A DNA stretch of 64,000 nucleotides, taken from positions 7,227-71,226 of the forward strand of contig JAZLAM010000022.1 in the NCBI GenBank assembly GCA_045613125.1, in the 5' to 3' direction. Numbering within the stretch: position 1 is the first letter of the stretch; every line of letters starts with the position of its first letter. Shown in pieces: positions 5,518-61,950 of this stretch. The translations under genes were made by a program, and so were the position numbers. The notes beneath the pieces are model-generated. The model saw nothing but the letters and a program-made list of their open reading frames with translations, searched no databases and was not told where the DNA came from. The stretch is from Alphaproteobacteria bacterium. Lineage in GTDB: Bacteria > Pseudomonadota > Alphaproteobacteria > RF32 > CAG-239.

Positions 5518-5570
5518 TAATTTAATCGGAAGATCGCTGGACGATTGCTTATCGCAATCGAGCGATGACT
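5518..5570. repeat. RPE-like palindromic repeat module (D/B modules)
   Basis: taatttaatcggaagatcgctggacgattgcttatcgcaatcgagcgatgac is the reverse complement of the element at 16099-16163. It contains an internal inverted repeat. Confidence 0.7.
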
Positions 5571-5909
5571 TTATTATATTTTATTATATTTTTTAATAAA
5601 CAAGAATCGCTACAATCTCTTTATTTACAACGCTTTCAGCGATTTTAAACTGCTCGTTTTAAACGTACGTTTAAATCAAGCAGTTTTTTTACTGTTTTCT
5701 TAGGACTTCCGTTTTTGCTATCTCTTTGAAAAACAATAAAAAGCAAATTTTAAATTTTGCAAAATTCTCCTTTTTACACTGCGTTAAAAAAACGTACGTT
5801 TAAATTACACTACTAATGTGCTTTGAAAAGCTTGAAACTCAAGCCAAAGCGCTTGGTGAAAATGTTTAGTTTTTTAGCACTTGTAACGTTACATTTAGGA
5901 GACTTAATT

Positions 5910-6527
5910 ATGAAAAAAAATATTTTATTAACTACAACAGCTATGTTGTTATCTGCCATAACATTAAACGCAAATGCTGATTCAAACAGTGCTCAACTTC
6001 ACATAGAAGTAAATATGGTTGAACCATTTGAAATTATAAGAGAAAAATATCTAGGTTTTGGTAAAGTTTTAGCCAGTGGTCCAAATAAAACCGTGATTGT
6101 TACAACAGATGGAAAATTAGACCCTAACTCTACTGCAACAATGTTGTCAAAAGCCACATATCAGAACTATAGCGATAAAAATGAGCCTGGAAGCGGTTCG
6201 TTTAATGAGGGGTTGTTTCAAATTAAAAACCCGGATCTAACAATAACGGAAGATGATGAAGAGTATTTAAATGCAGCCTTTAAAGTAAACTTTGCTCATG
6301 CTGAAGTTAATCTGGTTGATAGTACAAACGGTACAACATGTGGAACCGTTAGTGATTTTACCACTCGTTTTAAGCCTTCAGCTGAAGGTGAAATGCATCT
6401 TCATGTTGGTGGAACTTTTACAACCGTTAAGATGACCCAAGAGGCACACTGCAGCGGACAAACAACTGTTACAATAGTTTTAAATGAAGATGTTATTATT
6501 GCAGGAACGAATAGTGATAGTAACTAA
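5910..6527 (+). CDS. Secreted hypothetical protein
   Basis: Likely start MKKNILLTTTAMLLSAITLNANA (signal peptide) with AGGAGA 8 nt upstream. The upstream part of the six-frame ORF is probably not translated. Confidence 0.5.
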   Translation: MKKNILLTTTAMLLSAITLNANADSNSAQLHIEVNMVEPFEIIREKYLGFGKVLASGPNKTVIVTTDGKLDPNSTATMLSKATYQNYSDKNEPGSGSFNEGLFQIKNPDLTITEDDEEYLNAAFKVNFAHAEVNLVDSTNGTTCGTVSDFTTRFKPSAEGEMHLHVGGTFTTVKMTQEAHCSGQTTVTIVLNEDVIIAGTNSDSN

Positions 6528-6552
6528 TTCTTAATCAGATAGATTACCGACA

Positions 6553-6590
6553 AAAACCTCCACCGATTGTGTCGGTGGAGGTTTTTATAA
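6553..6590. terminator. Bidirectional terminator
   Basis: Hairpin cctccaccgattgtgtcggtggagg with flanking A and T runs, between convergent genes. Confidence 0.6.
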
Positions 6591-6630
6591 TACCATCACG
6601 GCTAAGACAAAGGGAGTTTTGTATTACATC

Positions 6631-7281
6631 TTATTTATAAGAATCGGCAGGGCCTTGGAAAATAATATGTTTTTTATCTGAAGACATTTTATTTAAAGCA
6701 TCTATCAATTTTTGGTTATACGGAAACTCTTTTGTTTTTTGAAAGACCAAAGTATCTTTTAAATATTGTTCATATATAGTTGTATATTCAGGAAACCCCG
6801 GTTGCGATTTTTCATAAGTCGGAAGTTTTATCCCCTCCTCTCTTGATGCAACTTCTTTAATTTCAGGTTGAGTTTTCGTTTCAACTACAGGAGCAACTCC
6901 TTCTGTCGAAGAAGTATTATGAATAAAGTTATTCTTTTGTTCCTTTATTTGACTACTTTTTATAACAGAAGGATGATTTTCAATAGTTATCTCATCTTTT
7001 GCTACATGCTCGGATACGGGAATTTCAACTTTTGTGTATGTAGGAACAAAAACCCCATCAACCAAAACATATTTTACTTCATACAAAGTATTCTGTTGCC
7101 TCACAACAGACTGAACATCTTGCTGTACAACAGGTGGTAAATTTTCATAATGTGGAGCCGTTTCCTGAGATGGGATAAAAAACGATGCTTCTTGGTCTTG
7201 ACGCTGAAAATTTTGCGCAAAAACACACAGAGGAAAATAAACGCTTGTTAAAAGTATGGTAAAAAATTTCAAATTTTTCAT
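6631..7281 (-). CDS. Secreted hypothetical protein
   Basis: Signal peptide MKNLKFFTILLTSVYFPLCVFA. Pro/Gln/Glu-rich, with no conserved catalytic motif. Confidence 0.45.
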   Translation of the reverse strand: MKNLKFFTILLTSVYFPLCVFAQNFQRQDQEASFFIPSQETAPHYENLPPVVQQDVQSVVRQQNTLYEVKYVLVDGVFVPTYTKVEIPVSEHVAKDEITIENHPSVIKSSQIKEQKNNFIHNTSSTEGVAPVVETKTQPEIKEVASREEGIKLPTYEKSQPGFPEYTTIYEQYLKDTLVFQKTKEFPYNQKLIDALNKMSSDKKHIIFQGPADSYK

Positions 7282-7323
7282 AATATTAACTCTAAATTGA
7301 TAATTCTACGATATTATTGTATC

Positions 7324-8019: not shown

Positions 8020-8022
8020 GAT

Positions 8023-9938: not shown

Positions 9939-9949
9939 GGAGTGATTAA

Positions 9950-16058: not shown

Positions 16059-16094
16059 CACGTCCTATACCATCACACCTATTTGTGAGTGAAA

Positions 16095-16410
16095 CGAACA
16101 TCCATAACTGTCATCGCTCGATTGCAATAAGCAATCGTCAAGCGATCTTCAAATTAGTAATTAATCGGAAGATATTTTAAACTGTCACTCCTCCGAGCAA
16201 AGACACTTTTACTGTCACACCTCCGAACGAAGTGAGGTCAAGGGGTCTTCAAATTAGTAATTAATCGGAAAATATTTTAAACTGTCACCCCTCGTTTTTG
16301 TTAAGAAAACGTCAAGGGGGCTTCAAATCAGTAATTAATCGGAAGATGCCTTGACCAAACCTTACGGTTTGGAGGCATGACAATATTATATTTCCTTGCG
16401 GAAACGAACG
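16095..16410. repeat. Composite array of RPE-like palindromic modules
   Basis: The D module (gtcatcgctcgattgcaataagcaatcgtcaagcgatc) is followed by three copies of cttcaaat(t/c)agtaattaatcggaa(g/a)at interleaved with ttttaaactgtcac(t/c)cctc units. The end (ggaggcatgacaatattatatttccttgcgg) is the reverse complement of the 21.9-kb locus. Confidence 0.75.
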
Positions 16411-16461
16411 ATGACTTTGGTTATTTTTCTTAGCGTTTGGGAAATATGACAAAGGGATAAA

Positions 16462-16489
16462 AAAAGAGGGGAAACCCCTCTTTTTTTTA
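16462..16489. terminator. Bidirectional terminator downstream of the giant pilin-like gene
   Basis: agaggggaaacccctct flanked by an A-run and a T-run. Confidence 0.6.
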
Positions 16490-19400
16490 CCATGGATCGT
16501 TATAATCCAAAGTCGGATCATTCAAACGTTCAATATAACTTTCGTTTGATCCAATCGTTCCGCCATCAGTACTATTATCTCTAGTGTTGTCCTCTCCGGT
16601 CTTAATATATCCTTGTCTAAAGTTATTAAGCTGATCATATTGGTCAACATATCTACTGCTATTGCCAGATTTAAATATATTAGTTCTGTCAAAGTAGCAA
16701 TATACTGTTGCATATGCTTCTATGGTTTTGGTCTGAACCGGGAACACATTCCAGTAATAAGCGTCATCCTGAATACCTTCAGCTCCCAATTTCCCTAAAA
16801 TCTCTTTATATTGGTTTCCCGGATAGACAAAGCCCATAATTGCAGACCAACCGACAAATTTAGAACCATCACACGATCTGTCTTTTGTCTCAGATTCCGG
16901 AGAGTGTTTTTCACAATCCCCTGTATGGCCATCTTCCTGTGGTTGAACCATACCTCTAAGTCTGGTGCTGTGTTGGAAATATAACGGTTTAGGACCATAT
17001 TTTGTACCATCAGAGTCACTATACCCTAAAAAGTATCTAGTCTCTGTTGATAGAGTTCCATCTTGGTTTGTGCCACCGGTTGCTACAGTCATCTGTTTAT
17101 ATTCTGGCTTAGCAATCGCTACTTCAGGATCCAAACCATTTATTCCACCACCAGTTGGGTCAGTAGTAAAACGTTTTTTAACATTACCTGGATTAAACGG
17201 GTGCACTTCCCCCTTACTTGGATCTAGCACATTAATACTGCTTGTTGCTTGAGCCATTTCAAAAGCTGCCGGTGTAAGGGTCATAAGTTTTGCATGCCCA
17301 GGAGGACATTGTGGTGCAGGCACAATTCCTAAAAACGGTGAAGCCCATCTCTTATTGCCTGTAAGGTTAACACCATCCCCATCTTCCACAATATCTTTGA
17401 CACCTTGTGCCGTAACTTGTCTAATACCACCTTTTTCAACTATTTCAGGTGTAATATAGCCGATATCAACATCATCTGCATATGTGTTGGTAACAACATA
17501 TATACCTTTGTTGATAAAGTCTGGCAAAATATCGCTCAAACGAGCTCCGCCTCTGGTTGTCAACTTGATATCATGCATCACAGACGTATACGCCGGATTT
17601 ACCATATAACGATCATAACCTAATTTTGATACCGCTGCATATCCATCGTTCAATCCCATGTTACTAATATGTTCATATACTTTAGCCCTAGCGCCATCTC
17701 CATAATAACTGTTATTACTATAGTCACCTGCATATCTGGGGGTTGCAATTGCGTAATTATCAGGATATTCTTCTATTATAGCATTAGAAACAAAACGGCT
17801 AGCTTCAATGTACCCCATACCGGTGTCTGCGACTTGGTCTCCTTCAATCAAATCTATATCAGGAACCTCTAACTCAATTGCACCACGGCGGATATATACA
17901 CTACCTTTAGTACCTTGAGCTTCTGTAGCATGCGGCCTCGGGTTAGGCCCACCAGATGTGTTTTCCACTTGCGTTAATTCGTCTGTAGAATAATCAACTT
18001 CCAGAATAGGAGTCATAATTTTATTATCTGTTGTGTCGTTCACATGAGAAATTAGCATCTTTTCATGATTAATTTCAACATTTGCCTCAGCATAAGGCAC
18101 ATCATTTTCTGTATTATTAGCATTTGTTCTATTAGGAACAACCTGAAACAATGTTGTTGGTGCCAACGACTGTATCACACCCAAAGAGTTTTGTTGTGTT
18201 GTCACATTCTGCATCACCCTAAAACCATGCGATTTAACTGTAACACTATCTGATTTCATACCAATTTTTTTCGAATCAAGAGTGGTTATTCCACCTTTTG
18301 TGTCAGCATCTATACTCAAAATATTCTTATCTGTACCCTCTGTGTTATCCTCTTGACCATGAATATTAAATTCGTTAGACTTTATATCAGTTGATTTAAC
18401 CCAAGCATCTTTACCAAAAGTGATGTTCTGAGCTGAAATATCAACGGTATTACCAGCTACCACATACTGTCCATCCTCATTTTCTTTAGAATATTGTCCG
18501 GTTAACGTAATTGCCCCATTTTGCAAAGAAACAACACCGTTTTCAGCATCCGTGGTATAAATATTAACAGCCCCACCTTCATTTTTTTCTGTATATATAT
18601 CAACCACATCATCACCTTGCAAAATAGCGTCTGTATCACCTAACTCTAACTTTGTTTTTCCTGTGTAGCCGACAATTCTTGTTTCATCAGGATCAATAAG
18701 CAGTCTATCTCTAGTTCCATCGTTTACTGTAACACCATCCTTGTTTGCTGTTAACCACCAATGGTCGCCTGGTTTACCCGTTCCTGACGAAACTGTAGAA
18801 TGACCGGCTTGCAGAGACTTAATCTTACCTGTTTCAGTACCAATTTGTTTAGCCTCCAAAGCCTCTCCTATATAAGCATCGCCATTAACTTTTAACATCA
18901 CATTGTTCATGTCGGATGAGATAATGTTATGAGTTGTGGTACCTGGAACTTGATCAGTATATCCTACTGATACCGCCTTCTTTAAATCAGACGTTCCGGT
19001 CACCGTAAGGTCAGCGTTTGCTTTTACACCTACACCGTCTTGAACCACAAGAAGTCCATCACTATTACTTTCTGTTGTTACCAATCTCACAACAGTGCTA
19101 GAAGCGTCAACACCGCTTTTTGCCAATTTCACACTGTTACCTGATGCATCAATATAGAATCCATCTTTTCCCGCATAAAAAGACTTACCATCTCCGGTTG
19201 CAACTTTCGTGTCGCCTACAACATCTAAAACGCCACCAATCCAAGCAGATTTTTCTCCAGCAAGCACCAAACCATCTGCTGTAACAGATTCCGGATTCTC
19301 TGTAGCACCTATAATCATCTTACCAACACCTAAGATGCTGCGCATTGACGTATCTGTAATATCACCGCCGGTAACACCACCCATATACAAATCTGCAGTC

Positions 19401-20080
19401 ATGGTGTTACGCCAAATTTCGTTCGGATCATCAGGTTGTGTCCTTTGTAAATATTTTTCATTTTCCAGAGCACCTGATGTTGCAGAGTTGATTGCTTCTG
19501 ACGAAGCTACCATAACAGAACCTTTATCACCGGTAAAACCACTGCTTGATAACTGATCTTTAGACAAGCTCCACACACCACCAACACCTTTTGCATCACC
19601 ACTGCCTGCAACATAACCACCATTACTTCCAACCATCGAAGCAATTCGGGCAGCACGCATTTCACCAATATCGGTTTCTTTAGGAAACTGGATAAACGCC
19701 GTAATAGAATCGGCAGATTTTTGGAGAACAATTTTCGGTTTACCGAAATTTTTCAAATTATCAAAAGAATATCCGTAAGGTAAATATCTTAACAACTCGG
19801 CATTCTCTATCCCAATCTCTTTATGTGCCGTTTCACTTCCAGATAGTTCTTCTTCCAAAATTTTCTGATAGTTAGCTGCCACATAATTATCCACTGCTTT
19901 AGAAAGTGTACGAACATGTGTTGCAGTGTTGATATCTTGCAACTCGCTGGTACGTTCAGCAGATTTTTTATATAAAGTTGGGGTAACTAAAGAAATCAGC
20001 GCCAACATAGCCATTGCCTCGACCATCATAGAACCGCCCTGACTTATCTTTTTTAATATATTTTTACGTATGTCAGTCAT
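16487..20080 (-). CDS. Giant (~1197 aa) pilin-like adhesin with a prepilin (class III) N-terminus and a beta-strand-rich body
   Basis: Start assigned to MTDIRKN, which has AGGAGA 8 nt upstream and overlaps the stop of the upstream gene. The N-terminus KKISQGG|SMMVEAMAMLALISLV has G(-1) and E(+5), like type IV prepilins. The body is Gly/Thr/Ser/Asp-rich and predicted beta-rich. Confidence 0.6.
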   Translation of the reverse strand: MTDIRKNILKKISQGGSMMVEAMAMLALISLVTPTLYKKSAERTSELQDINTATHVRTLSKAVDNYVAANYQKILEEELSGSETAHKEIGIENAELLRYLPYGYSFDNLKNFGKPKIVLQKSADSITAFIQFPKETDIGEMRAARIASMVGSNGGYVAGSGDAKGVGGVWSLSKDQLSSSGFTGDKGSVMVASSEAINSATSGALENEKYLQRTQPDDPNEIWRNTMTADLYMGGVTGGDITDTSMRSILGVGKMIIGATENPESVTADGLVLAGEKSAWIGGVLDVVGDTKVATGDGKSFYAGKDGFYIDASGNSVKLAKSGVDASSTVVRLVTTESNSDGLLVVQDGVGVKANADLTVTGTSDLKKAVSVGYTDQVPGTTTHNIISSDMNNVMLKVNGDAYIGEALEAKQIGTETGKIKSLQAGHSTVSSGTGKPGDHWWLTANKDGVTVNDGTRDRLLIDPDETRIVGYTGKTKLELGDTDAILQGDDVVDIYTEKNEGGAVNIYTTDAENGVVSLQNGAITLTGQYSKENEDGQYVVAGNTVDISAQNITFGKDAWVKSTDIKSNEFNIHGQEDNTEGTDKNILSIDADTKGGITTLDSKKIGMKSDSVTVKSHGFRVMQNVTTQQNSLGVIQSLAPTTLFQVVPNRTNANNTENDVPYAEANVEINHEKMLISHVNDTTDNKIMTPILEVDYSTDELTQVENTSGGPNPRPHATEAQGTKGSVYIRRGAIELEVPDIDLIEGDQVADTGMGYIEASRFVSNAIIEEYPDNYAIATPRYAGDYSNNSYYGDGARAKVYEHISNMGLNDGYAAVSKLGYDRYMVNPAYTSVMHDIKLTTRGGARLSDILPDFINKGIYVVTNTYADDVDIGYITPEIVEKGGIRQVTAQGVKDIVEDGDGVNLTGNKRWASPFLGIVPAPQCPPGHAKLMTLTPAAFEMAQATSSINVLDPSKGEVHPFNPGNVKKRFTTDPTGGGINGLDPEVAIAKPEYKQMTVATGGTNQDGTLSTETRYFLGYSDSDGTKYGPKPLYFQHSTRLRGMVQPQEDGHTGDCEKHSPESETKDRSCDGSKFVGWSAIMGFVYPGNQYKEILGKLGAEGIQDDAYYWNVFPVQTKTIEAYATVYCYFDRTNIFKSGNSSRYVDQYDQLNNFRQGYIKTGEDNTRDNSTDGGTIGSNESYIERLNDPTLDYNDPW

Positions 20081-20090
20081 ATTTTTTCTC

Positions 20091-21026
20091 CTAATCGTAA
20101 ATCTGCTGTATAGCATAAAAACAAGGATTATATCTATTATAACATCCTAGTTTTTTAAAATCCCTATCTTGTCGCACTGCTTCAAAAATCTTATGATATT
20201 GAAACTCCTGTTTCACTTGCGAATCGCCACCAACAAGTTCTAAAGCCCCGTCCAAACCACCTTCGGGGATTTCAACCTCGGGTGCTGTCACACTGTGGGG
20301 AGCATAAGCCGTAGGATTTGATCCGCTCAATCCGTCTCCGATGCTAACACCAGGCATCTCTGTGTCTAGGCCACCTTCAGGTAACTCTGCCTCAAGGCCA
20401 CCACCCGTAAAGTTATCATAGTTTTTAGCCATATATCCGCCACTTAAAATCAATTCTCCATTTTTATAATACGTATAGCCGAAACTTTTACCGAAACCTC
20501 TGGTTTTGGCCATATATCCTAAAAGATCTGCATTTGGCATATAAGTAGATATATTACGTAATCGCTGAGGAATTGGTGCATATGAAATCACATATATACC
20601 GGCAAACTCATTACTGCAACAGCTAACATAGTCATACGTAGTGCACCAATGGCTTTTATCGCCATCATTAAAACAATATACCTTACTAACCACATCAGCA
20701 TCCAGCGAATAGCCCACCGGCAAATATGGTTTCAAATCTTCTTCACTGATACTGCAATCTTCCAAAGTGGTTCCTTTTGCACAGAATGTACTATTAAAAC
20801 CATCTCCCGGAAAATATGACACGGCAGTGTGGCCTGTTTTAGATGTTGCTTTAGAATTAAAATAGTCTTTCACAGCATTATGCTGAGCAAAAAACTTTGT
20901 TACAGCAACACCGGCTTTTGTTTCCGCATGGACACGATCCAAATCTGCCCTAACGGAGATGTTGTACGAATATAAAATTGTAATAAATGTTGCAATTATT
21001 ACCCATAAATACATAGTTCTTCTCAC
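20091..21026 (-). CDS. Membrane-anchored hypothetical protein co-transcribed with the giant pilin-like gene
   Basis: N-terminal TM segment (LWVIIATFITILY) and a Cys-rich periplasmic domain. Its stop overlaps the RBS of the downstream gene. Confidence 0.45.
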   Translation of the reverse strand: MRRTMYLWVIIATFITILYSYNISVRADLDRVHAETKAGVAVTKFFAQHNAVKDYFNSKATSKTGHTAVSYFPGDGFNSTFCAKGTTLEDCSISEEDLKPYLPVGYSLDADVVSKVYCFNDGDKSHWCTTYDYVSCCSNEFAGIYVISYAPIPQRLRNISTYMPNADLLGYMAKTRGFGKSFGYTYYKNGELILSGGYMAKNYDNFTGGGLEAELPEGGLDTEMPGVSIGDGLSGSNPTAYAPHSVTAPEVEIPEGGLDGALELVGGDSQVKQEFQYHKIFEAVRQDRDFKKLGCYNRYNPCFYAIQQIYD

Positions 21027-21171
21027 GCAATATTCATATCATACTTCGCATATTAACACAGATTTTATTTAAAATCCAACATTTATGTTAAATATGGCAA
21101 AATATTCACATTTCTGTAACAGATGTGTATATTATATCATCATTGGGTAAATTTTTAATTAAAAAAACTCT

Positions 21172-21492
21172 TTATAAACAATCTCCGGCATTTTGCGCAA
21201 ACGTGTTTTTCTTAATATGTTTTACACAAACTTCATAATCTAACGCTATATCTTCAGTTTCATCTGAAAGCTCAAAAACAACCGCCTTAGACGAAGTTGC
21301 AAGAATTTTAGCTACCCTGTCATCTAAAAAATCAAGCAAGATTGTTTCATTTTCTTTGCGATATAAGGTGGCATGCTTGCTGTCATCATACAATATAAAA
21401 GGTCTGACAGGCTCACCTAAACGATGTTTTATCAAAAAAACCAAGACACCTTCGTGCGTAATTATAACTTCATAATCTGCTTCATTTTCCAT
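21172..21492 (-). CDS. Acidic hypothetical protein (106 aa)
   Basis: ORF tightly linked to the upstream 85-aa gene (2-bp gap). No recognisable motif. Confidence 0.4.
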   Translation of the reverse strand: MENEADYEVIITHEGVLVFLIKHRLGEPVRPFILYDDSKHATLYRKENETILLDFLDDRVAKILATSSKAVVFELSDETEDIALDYEVCVKHIKKNTFAQNAGDCL

Positions 21493-21494
21493 AA

Positions 21495-21752
21495 TCAGAA
21501 CATCTCCTTACCTTTTTTTATCCACCTGTCCGAAAGCTTATTCACCGTTTTATGAGCTGAATCGAACAAAGCCTTACCAATTCCCAATTTAGGTGTCTTA
21601 ACAAAAGAATCTGCTAAATTTACAGCACCATTTAACACCACTTCGGCAGCACTTAAGCCATAATCGGCCAATTTCGCCGCAACTCCGGCTCCGACTAAGA
21701 CACCACCACAAGCCCCTTTTACACACTTTTTTACTTTATCATCATCTAACAT
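21495..21752 (-). CDS. Small Gly/Ala-rich hypothetical peptide (85 aa)
   Basis: GACGGVLVGAGVAAKLADYG glycine-zipper-like segment. Lys-rich C-terminus. Confidence 0.35.
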   Translation of the reverse strand: MLDDDKVKKCVKGACGGVLVGAGVAAKLADYGLSAAEVVLNGAVNLADSFVKTPKLGIGKALFDSAHKTVNKLSDRWIKKGKEMF

Positions 21753-21835: not shown

Positions 21836-22090
21836 TCTGCAAGGAATCGTCAAGAAAAATAACCAAAGTCATCGTCCGCTTAGGCAGAAAATAAAACCAT
21901 TGTCATGCCTCCAAACCGCAAGGAAATATAATATTGTCATGCCTCCAAACCGCTAGGTTTGGTCAAGGCATCTACCGATTTTTTTAATTATTTTACACCA
22001 CTTCCTATGATGGATTTTTTAAACTAATTTGAAGACCGCTTAACCTCGCTTTGCTTGGAGCGATGACAGCATTATTTTTCCGCTCGAAAC
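21836..22090. repeat. RPE-like palindromic repeat cluster
   Basis: Tandem copies of ttgtcatgcctccaaaccgc, the hairpin ccaaaccgctaggtttgg, and taatttgaagaccgc...ggagcgatgac modules. These are shared with the 16.1-, 59.8- and 61.9-kb loci. Confidence 0.75.
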
Positions 22091-22100
22091 GGCTACAATT

Positions 22101-23780
22101 TTATCTTTCAAGTTTTTTATATTTTATACGATGCGGACGACAAGCCTCATCACCTAAACGACGGCGCTTATCCTTTTCATATTCTTCAAAATTTCCTTCA
22201 AACCACTCAACATGACCTTCATCTTCATAGGCCAAAATATGTGTTGCCAAACGATCTAAAAACCATCTGTCGTGAGATGTTACCAAAACACATCCGGGAT
22301 AATTCATAATTCCTTCTTCTAAGGAACGCAATGTATCAACATCCAAATCATTAGTCGGTTCATCGAGCATAATGACATTTGCACCTTTTTTGAGCATTTT
22401 TGCCAAATGAACACGATTACGTTCACCACCTGAAAGTTGGCCTACTTTTTTCTGCTGATCAGCACCCTTAAAGTTAAACTGTCCCACATATGCTCTTGAT
22501 GGCATTTGTTTTTTACCAAGCTCTATAATATCTAAGCCATCAGAAATTTCTTCCCATACATTTTTGTTAGCATCAAGTTCATCACGACTTTGATCAACAT
22601 AGCCTAAATCTACCGTATCGCCAATCCTAATTTCTCCCGAATCTGGTTTTTCTTGTCCGGTAATCATTCTAAACAATGTAGTTTTACCGGCGCCGTTAGG
22701 ACCAATGATACCCACAATAGCACCTTTAGGAATTTTAAATGACAGATTTTCAATCAAAACCTTATCCCCAAACGATTTGCTGATATTATTTGCTTCTATC
22801 ACCAAATCCCCTAATCTATCTGTCATCGGAATGTTTATATATGCATGCGTAATTTTATCTTTTGTTGCTTGTGATAAAAGTTCATCATAAGCATTTATAC
22901 GAGCCTTAGATTTTGCTTGGCGCGCTTTCGGATTTTTTTGAATCCACTCAAGCTCATTTGCCAAAGTTTTTTGACGTGCTGTTTCTTCTCTGGCTTCTTG
23001 CTCCAAACGCTTTTGTTTTTGCTCAAGCCAAGAAGAATAGTTTCCTTCATAAGGTATACCTTGTCCCCTATCCAGCTCTAAAATCCACCCAGTTACATTG
23101 TCTAAAAAGTATCTATCGTGTGTTACCATCACAACAGTTCCTTTATATTCTTTTAAATGTTGCTCAAGCCAAGAAACCGATTCTGCATCCAGATGATTGG
23201 TAGGTTCATCTAACAAAAGTATATCTGGTTTTTGTAAAAGCAAACGACAAAGTGCTACTCGACGTTTTTCACCACCGGAAAGCTTGGTCACATCTGCATC
23301 TGCCGGTGGGCAACGCAATGCATCCATTGCAATTTGAATCGTGCGTTCTAAATCCCAACCATTACAAGCATCAATTTTTTCTTGCAATTCTGCTTGTTGC
23401 TCTATCAGAGCATTCATTTCATCATCACTCATCGGCTCAGCAAATTTTGCAGATACTTCTTCAAATCGTTGAAGCAAATCTCTTACTTCACCCAAGCCAT
23501 CCATAACATTTTCCATAACGTTTTTGTTTGCATCAAGTTTTGGCTCTTGTTCTAAATATCCAACCTTAACGCCATCTGCAGCCCAAGCTTCTCCGTTAAA
23601 CTCTTTATCGACTCCTGCCATAATTTTCAAAAGTGTAGACTTACCGGCGCCATTAACACCTAAAACACCAATTTTCGCACCAGGTAAAAACGATAATGTT
23701 ATCCCCTTAAAAAGCTCTTTACCACCAGGAAAAACCTTCGTTAAATTTTGCATTACAAAAACATACTGATATGCTGCCAT
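22101..23780 (-). CDS. ettA: ABC-F ATPase EttA (energy-dependent translational throttle)
   Basis: Two ABC ATPase cassettes ([23 protein letters not shown]; [21 protein letters not shown]) with an arm/linker. The length and N-terminus match EttA/YjjK. Confidence 0.85.
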
Positions 23781-24785: not shown

Positions 24786-24862
24786 GGGCGCTTAGCTCAG
24801 TTGGTTAGAGCAGGCCGCTCATAACGGTCTGGTCGTAGGTTCGAGTCCTACAGCGCCCACCA
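24786..24862 (+). tRNA. tRNA with CAT anticodon (elongator tRNA-Met, or tRNA-Ile2 by lysidine)
   Basis: Cloverleaf by hand. Acceptor GGGCGCT/AGCGCCC, D-arm GCTCAGTTGGTTAGAGC, anticodon loop CTCATAA, T-arm GTAGGTTCGAGTCCTAC, discriminator A and encoded CCA. G1-C72 rules out an initiator. Confidence 0.85.
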
Positions 24863-27579: not shown

Positions 27580-27641
27580 ATTTGCACCTAAAAGTATTCT
27601 TATTATATATACTTAGGTTTTATTTCTCAAAATAACAAGTT

Positions 27642-28100
27642 CTACAGCTTCAGATGCTTCAAAAAGGCATCGCAGCCTTCAACAATATCCCAATATGTCT
27701 CGTCAAAATTTCCAGTATACCAAGGATCTTTGATATTGCGAGGCTTGTTTGCAAAATCTAGCAAGCGATGAATTTTATTATCCGTATCAATACCAACGAT
27801 AGATTGTATATCTTCAATGTTGCTGTCATCCATCGCTAAAATATAGTCATAGTAAGCATAATCTTTTGGACGAATACGACGAGAATAATGTTCTTCAAAA
27901 GGCACATGCATAGATTTCAACATCTCACGCGTGCCATGATGAATGCCGGCATGACACATTTCATTATAGCTCTCTGTGGCGGCAGAATCAATTTCAAACT
28001 GATCAGACAAACCGCGTTCCTCAACCATTTGTTTAAAAACAAACTGCGCCATCGGCGACCGACATATATTTCCTAAACATACAAATAAAACTTTAATCAT
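27642..28100 (-). CDS. Low-molecular-weight protein tyrosine phosphatase (copy A)
   Basis: P-loop VCLGNICRSP (CX5R) at the N-terminus and a DPWYTG (DPYY-like) loop. ~90% aa identity to copy B at 45327-45791. Confidence 0.8.
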   Translation of the reverse strand: MIKVLFVCLGNICRSPMAQFVFKQMVEERGLSDQFEIDSAATESYNEMCHAGIHHGTREMLKSMHVPFEEHYSRRIRPKDYAYYDYILAMDDSNIEDIQSIVGIDTDNKIHRLLDFANKPRNIKDPWYTGNFDETYWDIVEGCDAFLKHLKL

Positions 28101-40816: not shown

Positions 40817-42445
40817 TTAAATTTCCGGGAAGTTATATTTTTTGCGTTGTTCGGCCCAAATTGGTGGAATTTCCTCGCGTATCAGACGTTTTAAGATAAA
40901 GTCTGCCGGTTGAGTGCCTGCCAGAATGGATTTGATAATATCCGGTGCCAACGAAGTTAAACGAAGAATACGTCCCAAATAACCGGCATCCAGTTCTTCA
41001 TGTAACGATAGTTCGGCAATAGTCATTCGACCGGAGGTTAATATCTTTTGATATTTAAACGCTTTGGAAAGGGCTTTGATAAGCTCTTTATTCGGGCAAG
41101 AGTTTTGCGTTAACGCTTCCGGAACTGTCACCTGTAATACACCATGCGTTCTGGAAAGAGGGACATCTATTGTCATGATGTCGTCTTTGGTTTGAGCGGC
41201 GTATTTATCAGGTAAAATATCCAGCGCCAAAGCAGTCCATTTGATTTCCAAATTATCACATTGAACCGTAATGTTTTCGATTAACTCTTTGACTAAAAGC
41301 GATTTATCAAGCTCACTCATCTTTGCCAAGACCTTTTCTGGATGTTGCATAATCTTAAACAGCTCTTTGGTTTTATCCGGTGCAATTTGCTTGATAAGTC
41401 CGTTTAGGATATGGGCATCTTTTAGCATTGGCGTGATGATTTGTATAATCGCTTCATCAAGGATAGCCACCGCTACCGAGCCATTATGACAAGTATGATA
41501 GCCGTAGTATTTGGCTTTGGTCGAGGTATAATAATAACGCCTGCGACCATGTCCCATGCTGACCGTTGGTGTCATTCGGGTATGGCAGCAACCACAAGTT
41601 AAAATACCACGCAAAATGCCGACTTCGTTTTTCTTGTATAAGCAAGAGCGTTTGGCTACATCTTTGGAGGCTCTGATTTCGGCAACCTTATCAAATGTTT
41701 CTTGATCGATAATGGCCGGATGTTGTCCATCATATAGTTCATTTTTGTGTTTGACTTTGCCAAGGTAAACCGGATTTTTGAGTAATCGTTTTATCATCTC
41801 TCGGCGGTATTCTATACCGTATTTATCTTTGACTAACTTACAGACGGCGGTAATGGATTTATGCTTTAGATAACTTTCAAACATAAAGCGTATCATTTCG
41901 CCTTCTTCCGGTTTAATTTTGAGCTTTTTGTTGATAGCAACATAACCGGTCGGAACAGCACCGCCCATCCACATGCCTTTCTTTTTAGACGCGGCTACTT
42001 TATCACGAATACGTTCACCGCTGACTTCCCGTTCAAATTGAGCAAATGAAAGTAAGATATTGAGCATCAAACGGCCCATACTGTCGGCGGTATTAAAATT
42101 TTGGGTTACCGATACGAAAGAGCAGTTGTTCTTTTCCAATATCTCAATCATTTTGGAAAAGTCGGTTAATGACCTGGTTAACCGGTCTATTTTATAAACG
42201 ACAATCATGTCAACTTTGCCGGCATTGATGTCTTCTAACAGGCGCTCTAAGGCGGGTCTATTCATATTACCGCCGGAAAAGCCTCCATCATCATAATGTT
42301 CAGGAATGATTTTCCAACCTTGATGTTTCTGACTTAATACATAATTTTCACCGGCTTCACGCTGAGCTTCTAATGTATTAAACTCTTTATCCAACCCTTC
42401 ATCGGTTGATTTTCGGGTATAAATGGCACAACGAACTTCTTTCAT
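40817..42445 (-). CDS. Large serine recombinase
   Basis: N-terminal resolvase domain (CAIYTRKSTDEG with catalytic Ser). A recombinase domain and a zinc ribbon (CGCCHTRM...C). 542 aa. GC clearly above that of neighbouring genes. Confidence 0.85.
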   Translation of the reverse strand: MKEVRCAIYTRKSTDEGLDKEFNTLEAQREAGENYVLSQKHQGWKIIPEHYDDGGFSGGNMNRPALERLLEDINAGKVDMIVVYKIDRLTRSLTDFSKMIEILEKNNCSFVSVTQNFNTADSMGRLMLNILLSFAQFEREVSGERIRDKVAASKKKGMWMGGAVPTGYVAINKKLKIKPEEGEMIRFMFESYLKHKSITAVCKLVKDKYGIEYRREMIKRLLKNPVYLGKVKHKNELYDGQHPAIIDQETFDKVAEIRASKDVAKRSCLYKKNEVGILRGILTCGCCHTRMTPTVSMGHGRRRYYYTSTKAKYYGYHTCHNGSVAVAILDEAIIQIITPMLKDAHILNGLIKQIAPDKTKELFKIMQHPEKVLAKMSELDKSLLVKELIENITVQCDNLEIKWTALALDILPDKYAAQTKDDIMTIDVPLSRTHGVLQVTVPEALTQNSCPNKELIKALSKAFKYQKILTSGRMTIAELSLHEELDAGYLGRILRLTSLAPDIIKSILAGTQPADFILKRLIREEIPPIWAEQRKKYNFPEI

Positions 42446-42849: not shown

Positions 42850-43084
42850 CGTTAACTCCTTTTGTTTGACAATGAATGCTTGCTTTTGAAACAATATCAA
42901 GTGATTTTTCGGGATTTTTCGATAAATCTTTGGGCTCTGTTTCGTTTAAGATTTCAGCCACAGCTGTTTTTAACAGTTCTATGATTTCATTCATGGTTTT
43001 ATCCTTTCAGAAAGTTCCTACATACAGAACAAGTGAAAAAATCGAAAAATCGTTCTCACTTTTTTCAATTTTTTTTGTTTGTCT

Positions 43085-43840
43085 GACATAGGGTAAAAAT
43101 CCCGGAGAGGGGAAAATATTACCATGTAGAGTACACATTTTTTAATGTTTTTGATAAGTTGTTGTTTTTCAAAGAATCTTTTTTTCATAATTTTACCTTT
43201 CACTTAAAAATTATTTTCTTGTTGCATAAGGTAAAAATCCCGGAGCTCAATTTTTCGTCCCAAAAAAATGAAAAATTTTTCAATTTTTTTATAATGTATT
43301 GATTTTGAAGAAATATTTTCATACGAGTTTTTACCTTTCTTTGATGTGAAAGGTTTGTTTCCTCCTTCCACCAAAAGGTAAATTCCCGAGAATATGGAAA
43401 TGTGCCGAAAAATAAATTTTTTTTAGATAACTGTTTTTGCATATTAAAACTCCTTTTTACCATTTCATGTGGAAGAGGTTTCTTATTCCCTTCACGTATA
43501 GTAAAAATCCCGGAGTTAGATTTTTCGTCTTCAAAAAATACAAAAAAAATAAAATATTTTATAAGTTGTTGATTTTTCATAAATCTTTTTTCTCCTTTTT
43601 TACCGTTATACAGGAGTGAAAGGGAGGGTAGCCTCCTTTCACGTAAGGTAAATTCCAGGAAAATTCGAAATATTCCCCCTAGAGGAAAAATTTTTTTAAA
43701 ATCTGTTTTTACCCTTTGGTGAGAAGGGCTTTTTATGCCTTTCACGTAAGGTAAATTCCCGAGGAAGTTGAAATCCGCTCCAAAAAATATTAAAAAAATC
43801 AAATTGTTTTATAAGTGATTGAATTTGCAGATAAATAAAG
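43085..43840. repeat. Degenerate ~100-150-bp tandem array with iteron-like cores
   Basis: Six direct copies of (c)ctttcacgtaAGGTAAA(a/t)(a/t)TCCCGGAG at 43092, 43230, 43377, 43500, 43647 and 43750. Each is followed by a tttcgtc...aaaaaat and ataagttgttgattttt AT-rich segment. Confidence 0.7.
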
Positions 43841-43989
43841 TGAAGCGTCTTTTTCATTTCATGTTTTTGCAAGTTTTCATTTAATGATTTTGCAGAAATT
43901 CATTTCATGGTTTTACAATTTATCGTTCGGTAGTTTGAGGATTTTTTATTTCTTGATTTTACAAAAAGTATGATATTCGGTAAATTTTG

Positions 43990-45295: not shown

Positions 45296-45326
45296 ATTAC
45301 TCATTTCTTTAATTTTTCACATTTAA

Positions 45327-45791
45327 TCAGTCTTGCATTTTCAAATACTCTAAAAACGCCTGACAGCCTTCAACGATATCCCAATAGGTTTCATCAAAAT
45401 TGCCGGTGTACCAAGGGTCTTTGATATTGCGGGGCTTATTTGCAAAATCGAGTAAGCGGTGGATTTTGTTATCTGTATCAACGCCAACGATAGATTGAAT
45501 ATCCTCTATATTACTATCATCCATCGCTAAAATATAATCATAATAAGCATAATCGTGCGGACGAATGCGACGGGAGTAATGTTCTTCAAACGGCACATGC
45601 ATAACATTTAATATATCACGCGTACCATAATGAATACCGGTATGACACATCTCGTTATATCCTTCGGTGGCGGCAGAATCTATTTCAAATTTATCAGATA
45701 AACCACGCTCTTCTATCATTTGCTTAAACACAAACTGTGCCATCGGTGACCGACATATATTTCCAAGACATACAAATAAAACTTTAATCAT
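45327..45791 (-). CDS. Low-molecular-weight protein tyrosine phosphatase (copy B)
   Basis: Same CX5R P-loop and DPWYTG as copy A. ~90% aa identity and ~85-90% nt identity to copy A. Confidence 0.8.
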   Translation of the reverse strand: MIKVLFVCLGNICRSPMAQFVFKQMIEERGLSDKFEIDSAATEGYNEMCHTGIHYGTRDILNVMHVPFEEHYSRRIRPHDYAYYDYILAMDDSNIEDIQSIVGVDTDNKIHRLLDFANKPRNIKDPWYTGNFDETYWDIVEGCQAFLEYLKMQD

Positions 45792-50898: not shown

Positions 50899-51510
50899 TT
50901 GATGAAATTATTTAAGAGCAATCAATATGGAAGAAGCATGGTTGAGATGTTGGGAGTTTTGGCCATCATCGGTGTCTTGTCCGTTGGCGGTATCGCCGGT
51001 TATTCTAAAGCTATGTATAAGCAAAAAATGAACAAATCTGTAGATATTGTTTCTAATATTTTGATGGGAATAAATGAATTGTTATTAAAAAACCCTAATG
51101 AAGATATATTTATAGACGGCGTTCAAAATGCAGTAAAATTAGGCATACTGGATAAATCATTGTGCGATAGCTCTGATATATGTAGACTTCCTATCGGTGC
51201 TGAAATATTGATTAATTTTACTAAATCATTCGGTATAATTTTTAAAGAAGGTAATCGTATAAATCTTTGTATTGATTTTTTATCACATCATTGGGAAACT
51301 GCATTACCGATTAATTATAACGGTATAAGCGCTGTAACTTATAAAGGTGATCAGAATTTCATATATTCATCAACTGCACTTAACACTTATATTGGAATTA
51401 AAACAAGCTATACATTAGCTGATATCAAAGAGGCTTGTAATAATGCTTGTGATAATGACTATCATTGTTATGTTTATTTTTATACTTGGGATGAAACAAA
51501 TAGTTATTAA
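50899..51510 (+). CDS. Type IV pilin-like protein (class III signal)
   Basis: Short basic leader, then G|RSMVEMLGVLAIIGVLSVGGIAGYSKAM with Glu at +5. Variable C-terminal domain with paired Cys residues. Confidence 0.7.
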   Translation: MMKLFKSNQYGRSMVEMLGVLAIIGVLSVGGIAGYSKAMYKQKMNKSVDIVSNILMGINELLLKNPNEDIFIDGVQNAVKLGILDKSLCDSSDICRLPIGAEILINFTKSFGIIFKEGNRINLCIDFLSHHWETALPINYNGISAVTYKGDQNFIYSSTALNTYIGIKTSYTLADIKEACNNACDNDYHCYVYFYTWDETNSY

Positions 51511-54298: not shown

Positions 54299-54314
54299 AT
54301 TCTCTTAAAAAGGC

Positions 54315-54400
54315 GAAGGGACAAAAACCTCGCTTCAACCGTTACGGCTGCTTCCTTCCGAACCTGACCGGGTTGGCGGCGAACCGACCTTTTGCCCTTC
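54315..54400 (-). ncRNA. ffs: Signal recognition particle RNA (small 4.5S type)
   Basis: On the minus strand the segment reads ...GGUCAGGUUCGGAAGGAAGCAGCCG..., matching the conserved SRP RNA domain IV motif. The terminal stems gaagggcaaaagg / cctttttgtcccttc pair. It lies immediately upstream of dnaX, a conserved ffs-dnaX synteny. Confidence 0.75.
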
Positions 54401-54506
54401 ATAATAAAAAAACCTTTTTTATATTGAAACAATCAGCTTCATTTTTAAAGTAAAAAATTAAACTATCAACATTTATCCGTATTTAATAGAAAAACTTTAT
54501 CTTCAT

Positions 54507-57131: not shown

Positions 57132-57133
57132 AT

Positions 57134-57832: not shown

Positions 57833-57847
57833 ATCCCGCTCCTTTAG

Positions 57848-59133: not shown

Positions 59134-59140
59134 AAAAGCC

Positions 59141-59172
59141 CCCGGTTTTTAAGACTGGGGGATTTTTTTTAT
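59141..59172. terminator. Bidirectional terminator
   Basis: cccccggtttttaagactggggg hairpin with a T-run, between convergent genes. Confidence 0.55.
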
Positions 59173-59681: not shown

Positions 59682-59744
59682 ATTGTTCTCCTTTACATCT
59701 GATATAATAAAATGTAAATATTTTACAATATGGCTTTAGTTTAG

Positions 59745-60250
59745 TGCAGAAAATAAACCATTGTCATGCCTCGATTCCGCCAGGAATCGTCAAGGCATCT
59801 TCCGATTAATTAATTTGAAGCCCCCTTGACCTCATTTCATTCGGAGGGGTGACGGTAAAAGTGTCTTCATTCGGAGGGGTGACGGTAAAAGTGTCTTTAT
59901 TCGGAGGGGTGACGGTATTATTTTTCCGTTCAGAGCGGTGACGATTATAGTAAAAGTCATCGCTCGCTGAGGCATTTATGCCGAATGCGTCCAGCGATCT
60001 TCCGCTTAGTTTTTTCCCTAACTAACACCGCTTCCGATGAGAGTTTTTTTAAACTAATTTGAAGACCCTCTGATTTTGTTCGTTTCACTCACAAAAAGGG
60101 GTGACGATTTTTGTTTAAAATAACCATTGTCATGCCTCGATTCCGCCAGGAATCGTCAAGGCATCTTCCGATTAATTAATTTGAATCCCCCTTGACCTCA
60201 TTTCATTCGGAGGGTGACGGTAAAAGTGTCTTTATTCGGAGGGTGACATT
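59745..60250. repeat. Large cluster of RPE-like modules including a ~125-bp duplication and 30-bp tandem repeats
   Basis: 59755-59880 closely matches 60118-60240 (aaccattgtcatgcctcgattccgccaggaatcgtcaaggcatcttccgattaattaatttgaa.cccccttgacctcatttcattcggagg(g)gtgacggtaaaagtgtctt). About 3.5 tandem copies of (c/t)attcggaggggtgacggtaaaagtgtctt. A D-module variant at 59966-60010. Confidence 0.8.
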
Positions 60251-60348
60251 ATAGGGAGTGCAAGCAAAAAAGGGGCGTTTATATGTGATAACAAAAAACT
60301 CCGTTGTCAACAACGGAGTTTTTCTTAAGCTTAAAGCTACATACTATA

Positions 60349-60981
60349 TTAGTAGTATTTCCAAGCAACTGCGTTGCCAGATGATGTATCGCTACAATAA
60401 GTAAGAGCGTTCTTAACAGACATCGGTGTGTCGTTACCCTGAGTACCACCAGGTGTAGCATAACCTGAACCACCTGCATCGCCTACATATACCTCTGCTA
60501 ACAAACCAGCAGCATTACCATCTGATGCAGCAGCAACAGCTATCAAACCGGAAGCTTGACCTGAACCCCAGTCACCTGTTGCGATGGTTACGCATGCTTC
60601 TTGAGAAAGACCGCCATATTCAATAGTGAAAGCTCTTGTTGCATTATCTGTACCGGTATTAAGAGCTGCAGCTGCAATTGTAACTTCACCACCGAAAGCA
60701 TTAGTAATTGTTGAATTAGATGCACTTGTAAACATATCATTTGGTACAATACCAAACTTTTTAGCATCTTCGTTCGTCAAACCATCATAATCACCTTGAG
60801 CAGAGAACAATGTTCTGATGTTGGCTACCAACATAGAAACTTGGTCTGTAGTTTTGTTGATTTTGAATTTGTTCATAGCTTTTGAATAGCCGGCAATACC
60901 ACCAACGGATAACACACCGATAATTGCCAATACGCCGAGCATTTCAACCATTGAACGACCAGATTCATTTGTATATTTCAT
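60349..60981 (-). CDS. Type IV pilin-like protein (class III signal)
   Basis: MKYTNESG|RSMVEMLGVLAIIGVLSVGGIAGYSKAM is identical over ~29 residues to the pilin at 50899. The C-terminal domain is divergent and Gly/Ala/Thr-rich. Confidence 0.7.
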   Translation of the reverse strand: MKYTNESGRSMVEMLGVLAIIGVLSVGGIAGYSKAMNKFKINKTTDQVSMLVANIRTLFSAQGDYDGLTNEDAKKFGIVPNDMFTSASNSTITNAFGGEVTIAAAALNTGTDNATRAFTIEYGGLSQEACVTIATGDWGSGQASGLIAVAAASDGNAAGLLAEVYVGDAGGSGYATPGGTQGNDTPMSVKNALTYCSDTSSGNAVAWKYY

Positions 60982-61298
60982 AATTACATTCCTTATTAAT
61001 AAGTTAAAATAAACTTGACCTTAAACGGTCAACCGGAAACTATGATTTGCAGTTTCCACATAGCACTAAGTCTATCTGATGTCATACTAACAAAAAAATA
61101 TTAATAGTCAAGAGATAAAAAAGACATATATCTTAAGTAATATTATCGCATAAAAATCTGTAACCACCTGTTTTATCGCTTTTAAATATGAAAACGTTTT
61201 ATATATACCTCAGGTATATATCTTTTTTTGTTAAAATATTTGCACTGGACAATGTGTTTTTTTTGTGCTAACATACATAATGTATAAAATTTACAATT

Positions 61299-61769
61299 AT
61301 GAAGAAAATTATGTTATTGGTTATCGTCGCTCTAGGAGTGATGTTAACAACCACATCTTGTGGTGCTCAAGCTTATTGTGGTTATCAACCTGTTGGCTCG
61401 TCTTATGTCCCCGGTTTTTATGGAACATATCAGGCAACGCCTCCATCTCCAACCGGTTTGTTTGTAAAAAGCAACAACCTTAAGGAATCTGGAACTTATG
61501 TTATCGGTAATTCTTATTCTCCGACTAGGCTTCAGTGGGTTAATATGACCATAGTAAAAAATGGTTGTCTTGTCTTTGTTTATGATTCTGCGAATCAGCT
61601 GATTGCTCAGTATGACTTAAGAACTCCAAAACAAGACGTTTGTGACATTTTCCAACCTACAGGTTACACAGGAAAAGCCCTATCGGTTACCGTGTGTATC
61701 TATGGCGGACGTGGTTATAACGCAGTTATAGTCAGAGATGGAAATGCGCAAGAAGAGTACCATTTGTAA
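61299..61769 (+). CDS. Lipoprotein, hypothetical
   Basis: Signal with lipobox (LTTTSC|G). Confidence 0.45.
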   Translation: MKKIMLLVIVALGVMLTTTSCGAQAYCGYQPVGSSYVPGFYGTYQATPPSPTGLFVKSNNLKESGTYVIGNSYSPTRLQWVNMTIVKNGCLVFVYDSANQLIAQYDLRTPKQDVCDIFQPTGYTGKALSVTVCIYGGRGYNAVIVRDGNAQEEYHL

Positions 61770-61855
61770 AAACAGATTTTTCTGTTTATGAGAAAGAAGG
61801 GTGGCTTTTGCTACCCTTTTTTATGTTTATAAAAAAATCGGCAGATGCCCTGAAT

Positions 61856-61950
61856 TAAATCGCTCGATTGCGTTCAGCAATTGTCATACGATCTTCAAAT
61901 CAGTTTTTAATCGGGAGGTCCCTTGACGTTTCTTGGCAGAAACGAGGGAC
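61856..61950. repeat. RPE-like repeat (D/B/C module variants)
   Basis: atcgctcgattgcgttcagcaattgtcatacgatcttcaaatcagtttttaatcgggaggtcccttgacg is related to the 16.1- and 59.9-kb elements. Confidence 0.65.

Follow-up and report, generated by a model that had tools for sequence, protein, structure and literature searches.

A 64,000-nt stretch of contig JAZLAM010000022.1 (assembly GCA_045613125.1), from an uncultured gut alphaproteobacterium, carries a family of hairpin-forming repeats, and this raises the question of what these elements are and which enzyme acts on them. The whole stretch is termed the window here. The repeats are probably a divergent class of Ssn-related motifs (SRM), i.e. cognate single-stranded DNA (ssDNA) sites of a GIY-YIG Ssn endonuclease of about 95 aa, related to the NTS repeats of Neisseria and to the CGTC-tagged repetitive extragenic palindromes (REPs). 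They are found in both orientations at five intergenic loci, at 5.47-5.57, 16.07-16.42, 21.87-22.10, 59.75-60.25 and 61.86-61.95 kb, both by direct reading and by a repeat census. An earlier note, made from the sequence alone, had placed repeat modules at these loci, and they are indeed present. A 25-nt linker recurs three times at three or fewer mismatches in a scan of the window vs none in 100 shuffles, and a structural scan gives seven true two-tier hairpins vs none in a shuffle. In total there are 14 complete units, one degenerate unit, 10 truncated units and nine linkers. The units together make up about 2% of the window, which has a G+C content of 34%.

The unit is 36-47 nt in length. 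It begins with an unpaired nGTC tag, and this is followed by a 6-bp outer stem, in which AT[CG][CG]CT pairs with AG[CG][CG]AT. The inner stem is 6-8 bp long (typically 7), is free in sequence and is complementary in each copy (e.g. CGATTGC, CCAAACC, CGATTCC, CGTTTT and CGTTTCT); it closes on a loop of 4-5 nt. The 3′ side has a 3-nt bulge, TCA or TCC, and the unit ends in the tail C-T-[T/A]-C. The linker is an imperfect palindrome, CTTC[AC][AG]ATTA..TAAT[CT][CT]GAAG, which joins units tail to tail and comes in a short form of 24-27 nt (six copies) and a long form of 65-68 nt (three copies). The 10 truncated units, 29-37 nt in length, have lost the 3′ end, and each directly adjoins the tag of the following unit in the same orientation. 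With the tagged end taken as the head, all six complete dimers of the window are joined by their tails, with the tags facing outward. These loci are better parsed into a single hairpin unit, of which there are several stem classes, a linker of either length and 3′-truncated units than into the five modules distinguished in the earlier note. The recurrent elements seen there are real, but they reduce to these three components.

Seven canonical units fold as predicted when modelled as ssDNA, with energies of -8.5 to -12.5 kcal/mol and z-scores of -2.8 to -6.9. Three units of the 'CCGAAYGAARTGAGG' type have folds no more stable than those of shuffles (z +0.94 to -1.3), and two long-loop units also fold weakly. 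The earlier note had described a dispersed, modular family of hairpin-forming repeats, and in this it is correct.

The family is not confined to the window. The pattern GTCAYCCCTCG-N8-22-CGTCAAGGGR is present in at least 120 metagenome contigs, nearly all of them from gut or rumen. Of the 164 units in the matches listed, 124 have an N region, left unconstrained by the pattern, that pairs perfectly over 5 bp or more, and they do so with many different sequences. Among 35 distinct units, 11 of 13 base pairs vary on both sides, with a covariation score of 0.605 vs 0.164 for shuffled alignments and at most 0.148 for slid partners. This alignment was drawn from units chosen for pairing and its figure of 99.8% paired is circular; only the diversity of pair types, together with the 124 of 164 stems, serves as unbiased evidence. 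What else is conserved was assessed with a structural scanner, for which GTC, six outer base pairs, three bulged nucleotides of any sequence and four or more inner base pairs were sufficient. The bulge is TCA in 192 of 240 matches and TCC in a further 23. Of 176 distinct units, 96% have C directly 3′ of the stem, and T is the next base in 98%, neither of which the scanner demands; in the window every complete unit has this C. The two bases after GTC, also free in the scanner, are A (99%) and T (92%). The base that precedes GTC is T in 47%, A in 24% and C in 22% (93% for T, A or C), and the stem starts with AT or AC.

These conserved positions can be compared with those of a system from Neisseria. 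Chenal et al. (Nat Commun 2025; PMC11893778) report that the NTS (CGTCATTCCCGCG..GCGGGAATCYRG) is bound by SsnA solely as ssDNA and is cut a few nucleotides upstream. SsnA is a 94-aa GIY-YIG protein of the cd10448 family. SsnA depends critically on the three bases that precede the stem and on the C that directly follows it, the C mattering most for binding. The identity of the loop is dispensable, and an added stem can replace the loop. Homologues of ssn are flanked by such motifs in 42-71% of cases, and NTS clusters surround surface-protein genes and restrict transformation (Chenal et al., 2025).

Repeats of the present class and the NTS are alike in having an unpaired HGTC tag 5′ of a hairpin, an AT start of the stem and a C right after the stem. 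Both are found on the two sides of a single-domain GIY-YIG gene of about 94 aa (here, in relatives of the window), and both have intergenic copies in the hundreds that cluster near surface-protein genes. The nGTC tag, the semi-conserved 6-bp outer stem and the 3′ C would then be the counterparts of the three elements that SsnA needs in Neisseria. The two differ in that the hairpin of the window has two tiers (6 bp, a TCA bulge and a 7-bp inner stem of free sequence), whereas the NTS has a single 8-bp stem. The tail here is CT[TA]C and not CYRG or CCA, units are joined tail to tail by a defined palindromic linker, and the host is an uncultured gut alphaproteobacterium, the two-tier class being known from sequence alone. 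An extra inner hairpin, set off by the TCA bulge, would take the position of the NTS loop, and this explains its free sequence; it also fits the finding that the NTS loop is dispensable and replaceable (Chenal et al., 2025). The two-tier bulged architecture is new, and the unit is otherwise kin to known Ssn-related hairpin repeats.

The link to a nuclease gene comes from relatives. All-against-all clustering of the open reading frames (ORFs) of 120 listed loci, selected by their units, gives as its top family a GIY-YIG protein of 92-102 aa, with PF01541 as the sole domain above threshold. The family is found in 12 of these 120 loci and in none of 80 FtsZ-anchored loci (1.4 Mb) from the same clade, a split whose chance under equal rates is about 0.33^13. 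Besides this family, those that recur in the 120 loci encode a pilus ATPase, pilins, Lcl-C surface proteins, ankyrin proteins and others, and include no other nuclease and no transposase. At loci chosen by GIY-YIG protein identity alone, tagged hairpins are present on both sides of the gene, within about 150 nt, at five of five independent places. GIY-YIG-selected loci have 0.246 units per kb, about 40-fold more than the FtsZ loci, whose density of 0.006 per kb is at the shuffle level. In five loci (L107, L115, L124, L133 and L219) the layout is that of a cassette: a unit on the plus strand, TCT[TA]C[CG/AA]ATTA, a promoter-like TTGACA/TATAAT stretch, the ORF, TAATT[CT]GAAGA and a unit on the minus strand. 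The GIY-YIG genes enclosed in this way by two inverted units encode 92-99 aa.

Aligned over its full length, the L219 protein shares 44% identity (E 8e-29) with a protein of 94 aa from N. gonorrhoeae. The latter, encoded amid 13 canonical NTS repeats in a stretch of 1.67 kb, is SsnA. Its sequence was taken from a chromosome mislabelled as a plasmid in PLSDB. By sequence comparison, the GIY-YIG genes of the relatives are assigned to the Ssn family (cd10448), whose SsnA has about 94 aa: they encode single-domain proteins of 92-102 aa, and that of L219 matches SsnA far below an E of 1e-10. A PDB sequence search gives no close solved structure, the best GIY-YIG match being 1ZG2 (E 0.62). It should be pointed out that the Ssn link could not be seen in the earlier note, as the window contains no ssn gene.

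Each exact GIY-YIG protein corresponds to one syntenic locus across samples, and the gene context varies between species. The pattern is that of a single-copy gene with vertical inheritance, in the manner of the REP-associated tyrosine transposase (RAYT) genes. Two side-by-side GIY-YIG genes, of 99 aa and 129 aa, are found as convergent neighbours at positions 1201-2099 of L222 and L223, flanked by genes for an Lcl-C surface protein and a DUF525 protein, and some genomes therefore hold paired ssn paralogues.

A different possibility is that the repeats are classical REPs or bacterial interspersed mosaic elements (BIMEs) mobilized by a RAYT of the IS200/IS605 family, as in E. coli and Pseudomonas. 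The resemblance is considerable. REPs, BIMEs and the REPIN-RAYT systems (REPINs being REP doublets) also consist of tagged hairpins in inverted doublets, alternate with short or long linkers, build mosaic clusters and have a nuclease gene that is single-copy, inherited vertically and bordered by repeats of its own. In addition, one truncated unit of the window (22068-22096) is headed GTAG. Nevertheless, the conserved tag is GTC-A and not GTAG, and the ORF families that recur in the 120 repeat-bearing loci listed include a single nuclease, the GIY-YIG protein, and no HUH Y1 transposase. REPs of the CGTC type, moreover, never flank RAYT genes (Di Nocera et al., BMC Genomics 2013; PMC3733652). 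The two units of a window doublet usually differ in sequence, and unlike a REPIN the doublet therefore forms no single long hairpin. A RAYT origin is highly improbable on these grounds. From their anatomy, K-turn, attC, dif/Xer, CRISPR and IS200/IS605-end readings were also rejected, the defining sequence features or enzymes being missing.

How do the dimers of the window relate to the ssn gene? A close relative, L219 (GCA_045644765.1), is informative here. Its ferritin, Rpe and pilin proteins are 92%, 93% and 68% identical, respectively, to those of the window. In L219 an intact ssn cassette lies between the pilin and ferritin genes, and the same intergenic region of the window holds its largest repeat array. 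The left end of the cassette matches window positions 59763-59808 at 44 of 46 and 45 of 47 nucleotides in two alignments. The short linker of the window, CTTCCGATTA-AT-TAATTTGAAG, is made up of the two ends of the L219 cassette joined together. The long-linker composite at 59956-60105 also has a homologue in L219. Thus the window dimers appear, from these alignments, to be gene-less copies of the ssn cassette that the close relative carries. They may be deletion derivatives of the cassette, or else a palindromic dimer was there first and the gene came to lie in its middle; the data are compatible with either direction. The long linkers show only short, weak similarities to the 3′ end of the ssn ORF (TAATTYGAAGA plus a few bases), and in L155 there is a linker of about 28 nt with the same ends. 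Gene-bearing and gene-less forms that pair so cleanly at one syntenic site are the type of evidence with which REPIN-RAYT- or MITE-like behaviour can be tested (MITE, miniature inverted-repeat transposable element).

The arrangement of unit, linker and inverted unit is superficially that of a MITE, and structure is kept over sequence, as in the attC sites of integrons. One might therefore think of MITEs with terminal inverted repeats, moved in trans by a DDE transposase, or of attC-like sites. This explanation is scarcely credible. The terminal units of a composite are usually of different sequence classes, target-site duplications were not observed, and the repeats are accompanied by neither a transposase nor an IntI gene. 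The orientation of units alternates, with no cassette ORFs between them. No transposase-bearing insertion sequence (IS) matches the repeats either.

If the repeats are Ssn-related motifs, the dimers could behave as REPIN- or MITE-type derivatives of the ssn cassette or as empty sites for it, and the tail-to-tail dimer would correspond to the 'unit - promoter - ssn - inverted unit' cassette without its gene. In uncultured Alphaproteobacteria of gut and rumen, such dimers would have become widespread between genes. A bolder proposal is that a GIY-YIG ssDNA nuclease moves, or until recently moved, the 'unit - ssn - inverted unit' cassette as a mobile element. The window dimers would be MITE/REPIN-like non-autonomous copies or palindromic 'empty sites' for homing, and the inner hairpin with its TCA bulge a new recognition architecture. 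This is tentative and, at present, rather doubtful. If cassette mobility should prove true, it would represent a transposition or homing chemistry that is not found among the known bacterial IS families, and there would be a family of programmable ssDNA nucleases with distinct specificities.

The arrays themselves are dynamic between strains. In L211-L214 (positions 1795-2315), one whole repeat period of about 109 nt downstream of the ssn gene is present in two samples and missing in two. In L214 the unit right after the ssn stop codon has an inner stem entirely different from that in the sister samples. The linker is more restricted in distribution than the unit pattern. The exact sequence CTTCAAATYAGTWWTTAATCGG has no match in GTDB genomes and none in metagenomes, and the linker sequence is therefore lineage-specific. 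The FtsZ-anchored relatives of the window are uncultured gut and rumen Alphaproteobacteria (best FtsZ identity 72%), and in their 80 loci the linker was not found and units are present in L039 only.

Several observations weigh against the assignment to Ssn-related motifs. No ssn gene or remnant was found in the 64-kb window by tblastn at E values up to 1, so that a cognate enzyme in this genome is an assumption. The published SRM motif, HGTCWYN(0-2)YYVSBRHN(0-5)WNVSBRGN(0-2)RNCYNB, has no matches in the window vs 0-1 per shuffle, and gives background counts in other loci. Between three and five units have no stable inner hairpin. The outer-stem classes ATCGCT, ATGCCT, ACCCCT and GTCCCT coexist in the window, although SsnA of N. 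meningitidis is sequence-sensitive in the stem (Chenal et al., 2025).

The CGTC-tagged REPs provide a further comparison, and here too some features are unfavourable to the assignment. Di Nocera et al. (2013) describe these REPs as mostly alphaproteobacterial, without a dedicated transposase, and as including dRS3 of Neisseria and RPE-4 and RPE-6 of Rickettsia. Window units share with them a (C/T)GTC tag, an AT stem start, a loop of 4-5 nt and a short unpaired tail, as well as the mainly alphaproteobacterial distribution, the inverted dimers and the intergenic location. The published stem, on the other hand, is 8-9 bp and uninterrupted, whereas that of the window is 6 + 7 bp with a bulge. The published tail is CCA and the dimers are mostly head to head, in contrast to CT[TA]C and tail-to-tail joining in the window. 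The first tag base of two-tier units is T, A or C. Canonical single-tier hairpins of the CGTC-1/NTS type, e.g. TGTCATTCCGGGCTTGA[CT]CCGGGAATCCAG, are found at L085 (flanks of 488-796), L151 (1036-1066) and L163 (50-78), and those of L085 flank a GIY-YIG gene. They are on some contigs that hold two-tier units, so both architectures coexist in the community; in the window there are no CGTC-1-like units.

The alphaproteobacterial host also suggests Rickettsia palindromic elements (RPEs), to which the earlier note likened the repeats. RPEs are elements of 100-150 nt whose hallmark is in-frame insertion in protein-coding genes, and selfish repeats of this kind would be expected within ORFs. The window has none: all 25 units and the nine linkers lie between ORFs and outside every coding region. 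This agrees with the intergenic placement first proposed, and the in-frame insertions that were to be looked for are absent among the 25 units. The units are 36-47 nt in length, far shorter than an RPE, and they associate with the ssn gene. The likeness has some basis in that RPE-4 and RPE-6 are CGTC-tagged hairpins of the superfamily to which the window units are related (Di Nocera et al., 2013). The relationship is a distant one only, and an RPE-like origin is very unlikely.

Modular intergenic arrays are also known as the Neisseria intergenic mosaic elements (NIMEs) and as the pneumococcal BOX elements. These likewise consist of a few modules in variable order and are found near surface or virulence genes. 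Their module sequences are unrelated to those of the window, and the NIMEs are built on single-tier dRS3/NTS hairpins. We know of no dedicated nuclease for BOX elements.

Could the repeats function at the RNA level, as 3′-end stabilizers, terminators or small RNAs, with the ssn link being incidental? Several clusters are just downstream of convergent genes, e.g. ftsZ, an ABC-F gene and a pilin gene. The loops are often of the GNNA type, a few T·G pairs (compatible with G·U) are present, and REPs in other bacteria do confer stability on mRNA. No Rfam family, however, matches the repeats at gathering thresholds, and a permissive run on the two largest loci gives chance or terminator-driven matches only. 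Units occur in both orientations inside one cluster, and there are no T-tracts. SsnA is inactive on RNA (Chenal et al., 2025), and the unpaired tag and the 3′ C match elements recognized by a DNA enzyme. An RNA-level role is therefore improbable.

With the repeats taken as Ssn sites, the following steps may be proposed. The genome presumably encodes an Ssn outside the window. By analogy with Neisseria, this enzyme would cut ssDNA a few nucleotides 5′ of the tag, and the substrate could be provided by transformation, conjugation or replication. Cutting may limit or shape recombination around the surface-protein genes that the repeats flank, and in this way the clusters would modulate recombination near the bracketed genes. 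Two gene blocks of the window are bracketed by repeat clusters, at 16487-21752 and 60349-61769. The first has genes for proteins of 1209 aa and 311 aa (16487-21026) with pilin-like N-termini and no Pfam match. The second encodes a type IVb pilin (Bundlin/PilS, 60349-60981) and a 156-aa lipoprotein. The repeat clusters around these surface-protein blocks echo the clustering of NTS near surface genes of Neisseria. An unusual prepilin-like N-terminus, GRSMVEMLGVLAIIGVLSVGG / MVEAMAMLALISLV, is common to three proteins of the window (50899-51510, 60349-60981 and 16487-20116), one of which is 1209 aa in length with no recognisable domain.

The first description of Ssn nucleases and of the hairpins that they recognise dates from 2025 and covers Neisseria together with a small number of cultured bacteria. 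The present repeats add an abundant and structurally distinct class from uncultured gut and rumen Alphaproteobacteria. As the published search motif misses the two-tier class, present SRM censuses probably undercount these elements. Candidate pairs of enzyme and site for ssDNA tools can likewise be drawn from this class.

The individual elements of the window are as follows. The first locus is the simplest. A long linker of 67 nt, CTTCAAATTAGT...AATCGGAAGAT (5468-5534, plus strand), has no unit on its left side. On its right is a complete two-tier unit on the minus strand (5529-5569), with outer stem ATCGCT, inner stem CGATTGC and bulge TCC, which folds with -12.5 kcal/mol (z -5.6).

The second locus begins on the plus strand with a 3′-truncated unit found by the repeat census, TCACACCT ATTTGTGAGTGAAACGAAC... 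(16073-16109), which abuts the tag of a complete unit (16110-16150; ATCGCT / CGATTGC, bulge TCA, tail CTTC; -12.2 kcal/mol, z -5.2). There follow, all on the same strand, a short linker, CTTCAAATTAGTAATTAATCGGAAGAT (16147-16173), a truncated unit of 30 nt, GTCACTCCTCCGAGCAAAGACACTTTTACT (16184-16213, from the parse), an open-loop unit, ACACCT ... AGGGGT, which has no inner stem and folds weakly (16214-16250; z +0.9), a second short linker (16247-16273) and a complete unit, ACCCCT / CGTTTT (16284-16324; -8.5 kcal/mol, z -2.8). A third short linker (16321-16347, plus strand; like the other two, detected by the linker scan) joins this unit tail to tail with a complete unit on the minus strand (16342-16381), ATGCCT / CCAAACC with loop GTAA (-11.5 kcal/mol, z -6.9). 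The locus ends in a truncated minus-strand unit, GTCATCGTTCGTTTCCGCAAGGAAATATAATATT (16382-16415), found by the repeat census.

At the third locus, two truncated units stand head to tail on the plus strand (21868-21901 and 21902-21935, together 21868-21935). Next is a complete plus-strand unit (21936-21975), ATGCCT / CCAAACC with loop GCTA and tail CTAC (-11.5 kcal/mol, z -6.8). The minus strand then has a long linker of 65 nt (21970-22034), an open-loop unit, ATCGCT ... AGCGGT with bulge TTA (22031-22067; z -1.3), and the truncated unit with head GTAG in place of GTCA (22068-22096), which is 4 nt past the stop of the ABC-F gene (ORF 22101-23780). The truncated units and the long linker come from the repeat census.

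The fourth locus is the largest. Its complete plus-strand unit at 59763-59802, ATGCCT / CGATTCC, was identified by the structural scan, folding and alignment; with its tail it is the sequence that is 45/47 identical to the left end of the L219 ssn cassette. The short linker of fused cassette ends is at 59797-59820 (minus strand), as determined by comparison with L219. It is followed on the minus strand by an open-loop unit, ACCCCT ... AGGGGG (59817-59853; z +0.2), and by three truncated units head to tail (59854-59942), i.e. two 30-nt tandem copies (59854-59913) and one of 29 nt, all from the repeat census. A complete plus-strand unit with a long inner hairpin, ATCGCT / CGC..GGCAT..ATGCC..GCG and bulge TCC (59956-60002; -9.8 kcal/mol, z -2.3), a long minus-strand linker of 68 nt (59997-60064, repeat census) and a minus-strand unit that also has a long inner hairpin, ACCCCT / TTTTGT...ACAAAA (60061-60105; z -0.8), make up the long-linker composite; the first unit and the linker have L219 homologues. 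A duplicate of the unit at 59763 is found at 60129-60168 (plus strand, ATGCCT / CGATTCC) by the repeat census and structural scan. After it, parsing gives a short linker (60163-60186), an open-loop unit (60183-60218) and a truncated unit of 29 nt (60219-60247), all on the minus strand, the two units together spanning 60183-60247. The copy arises from a segmental duplication of about 100-125 nt, in which 59751-59848 and 60117-60214 are 97% identical. The earlier note had pointed to a duplication of about 125 bp together with 30-bp tandem units, and both were found.

The fifth locus has a degenerate plus-strand unit without a tag, ATCGCT / CGATTGC with mismatches (61858-61896, repeat census), a diverged short linker on the plus strand (61893-61919, parse) and a complete minus-strand unit (61914-61953). 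The last has the tag GTC-G, the outer stem GTCCCT / AGGGAC and the inner stem CGTTTCT (-11.0 kcal/mol, z -5.0).

Other features of the window are set apart from the repeats. An apparent integrated island at 24786-48400 adjoins a tRNA-Met gene (24786-24862); it has no copy of the hairpin repeat, and a direct repeat of the tRNA 3′ end was looked for without success. The island encodes a type I restriction-modification system (HsdR, 28800-32006; HsdS, 32970-34208; HsdM, 36921-38423), and has two Fic-like genes and a gene for a large serine recombinase (40817-42445). A 300-nt direct repeat within it, at 27633-27932 and 45324-45623, is 82% identical between copies 17.7 kb apart, and consists of two low-molecular-weight phosphatase/ArsC-like genes (27642-28100 and 45327-45791). 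At 43070-43930 there are at least six copies of the motif AGGTAAA[AT]TCCCGGAG / AAGGTAAATTCC[CA]G, spaced 137-270 nt apart. Three 23-nt tandem units are at 43853-43927, and the motif array adjoins the serine recombinase genes; it looks like iterons or an array of binding sites. A gene for the bacterial small signal recognition particle (SRP) RNA, ordinary in kind, is located on the minus strand at 54309-54403 (RF00169, 57.8 bits), upstream of a dnaX-like gene.

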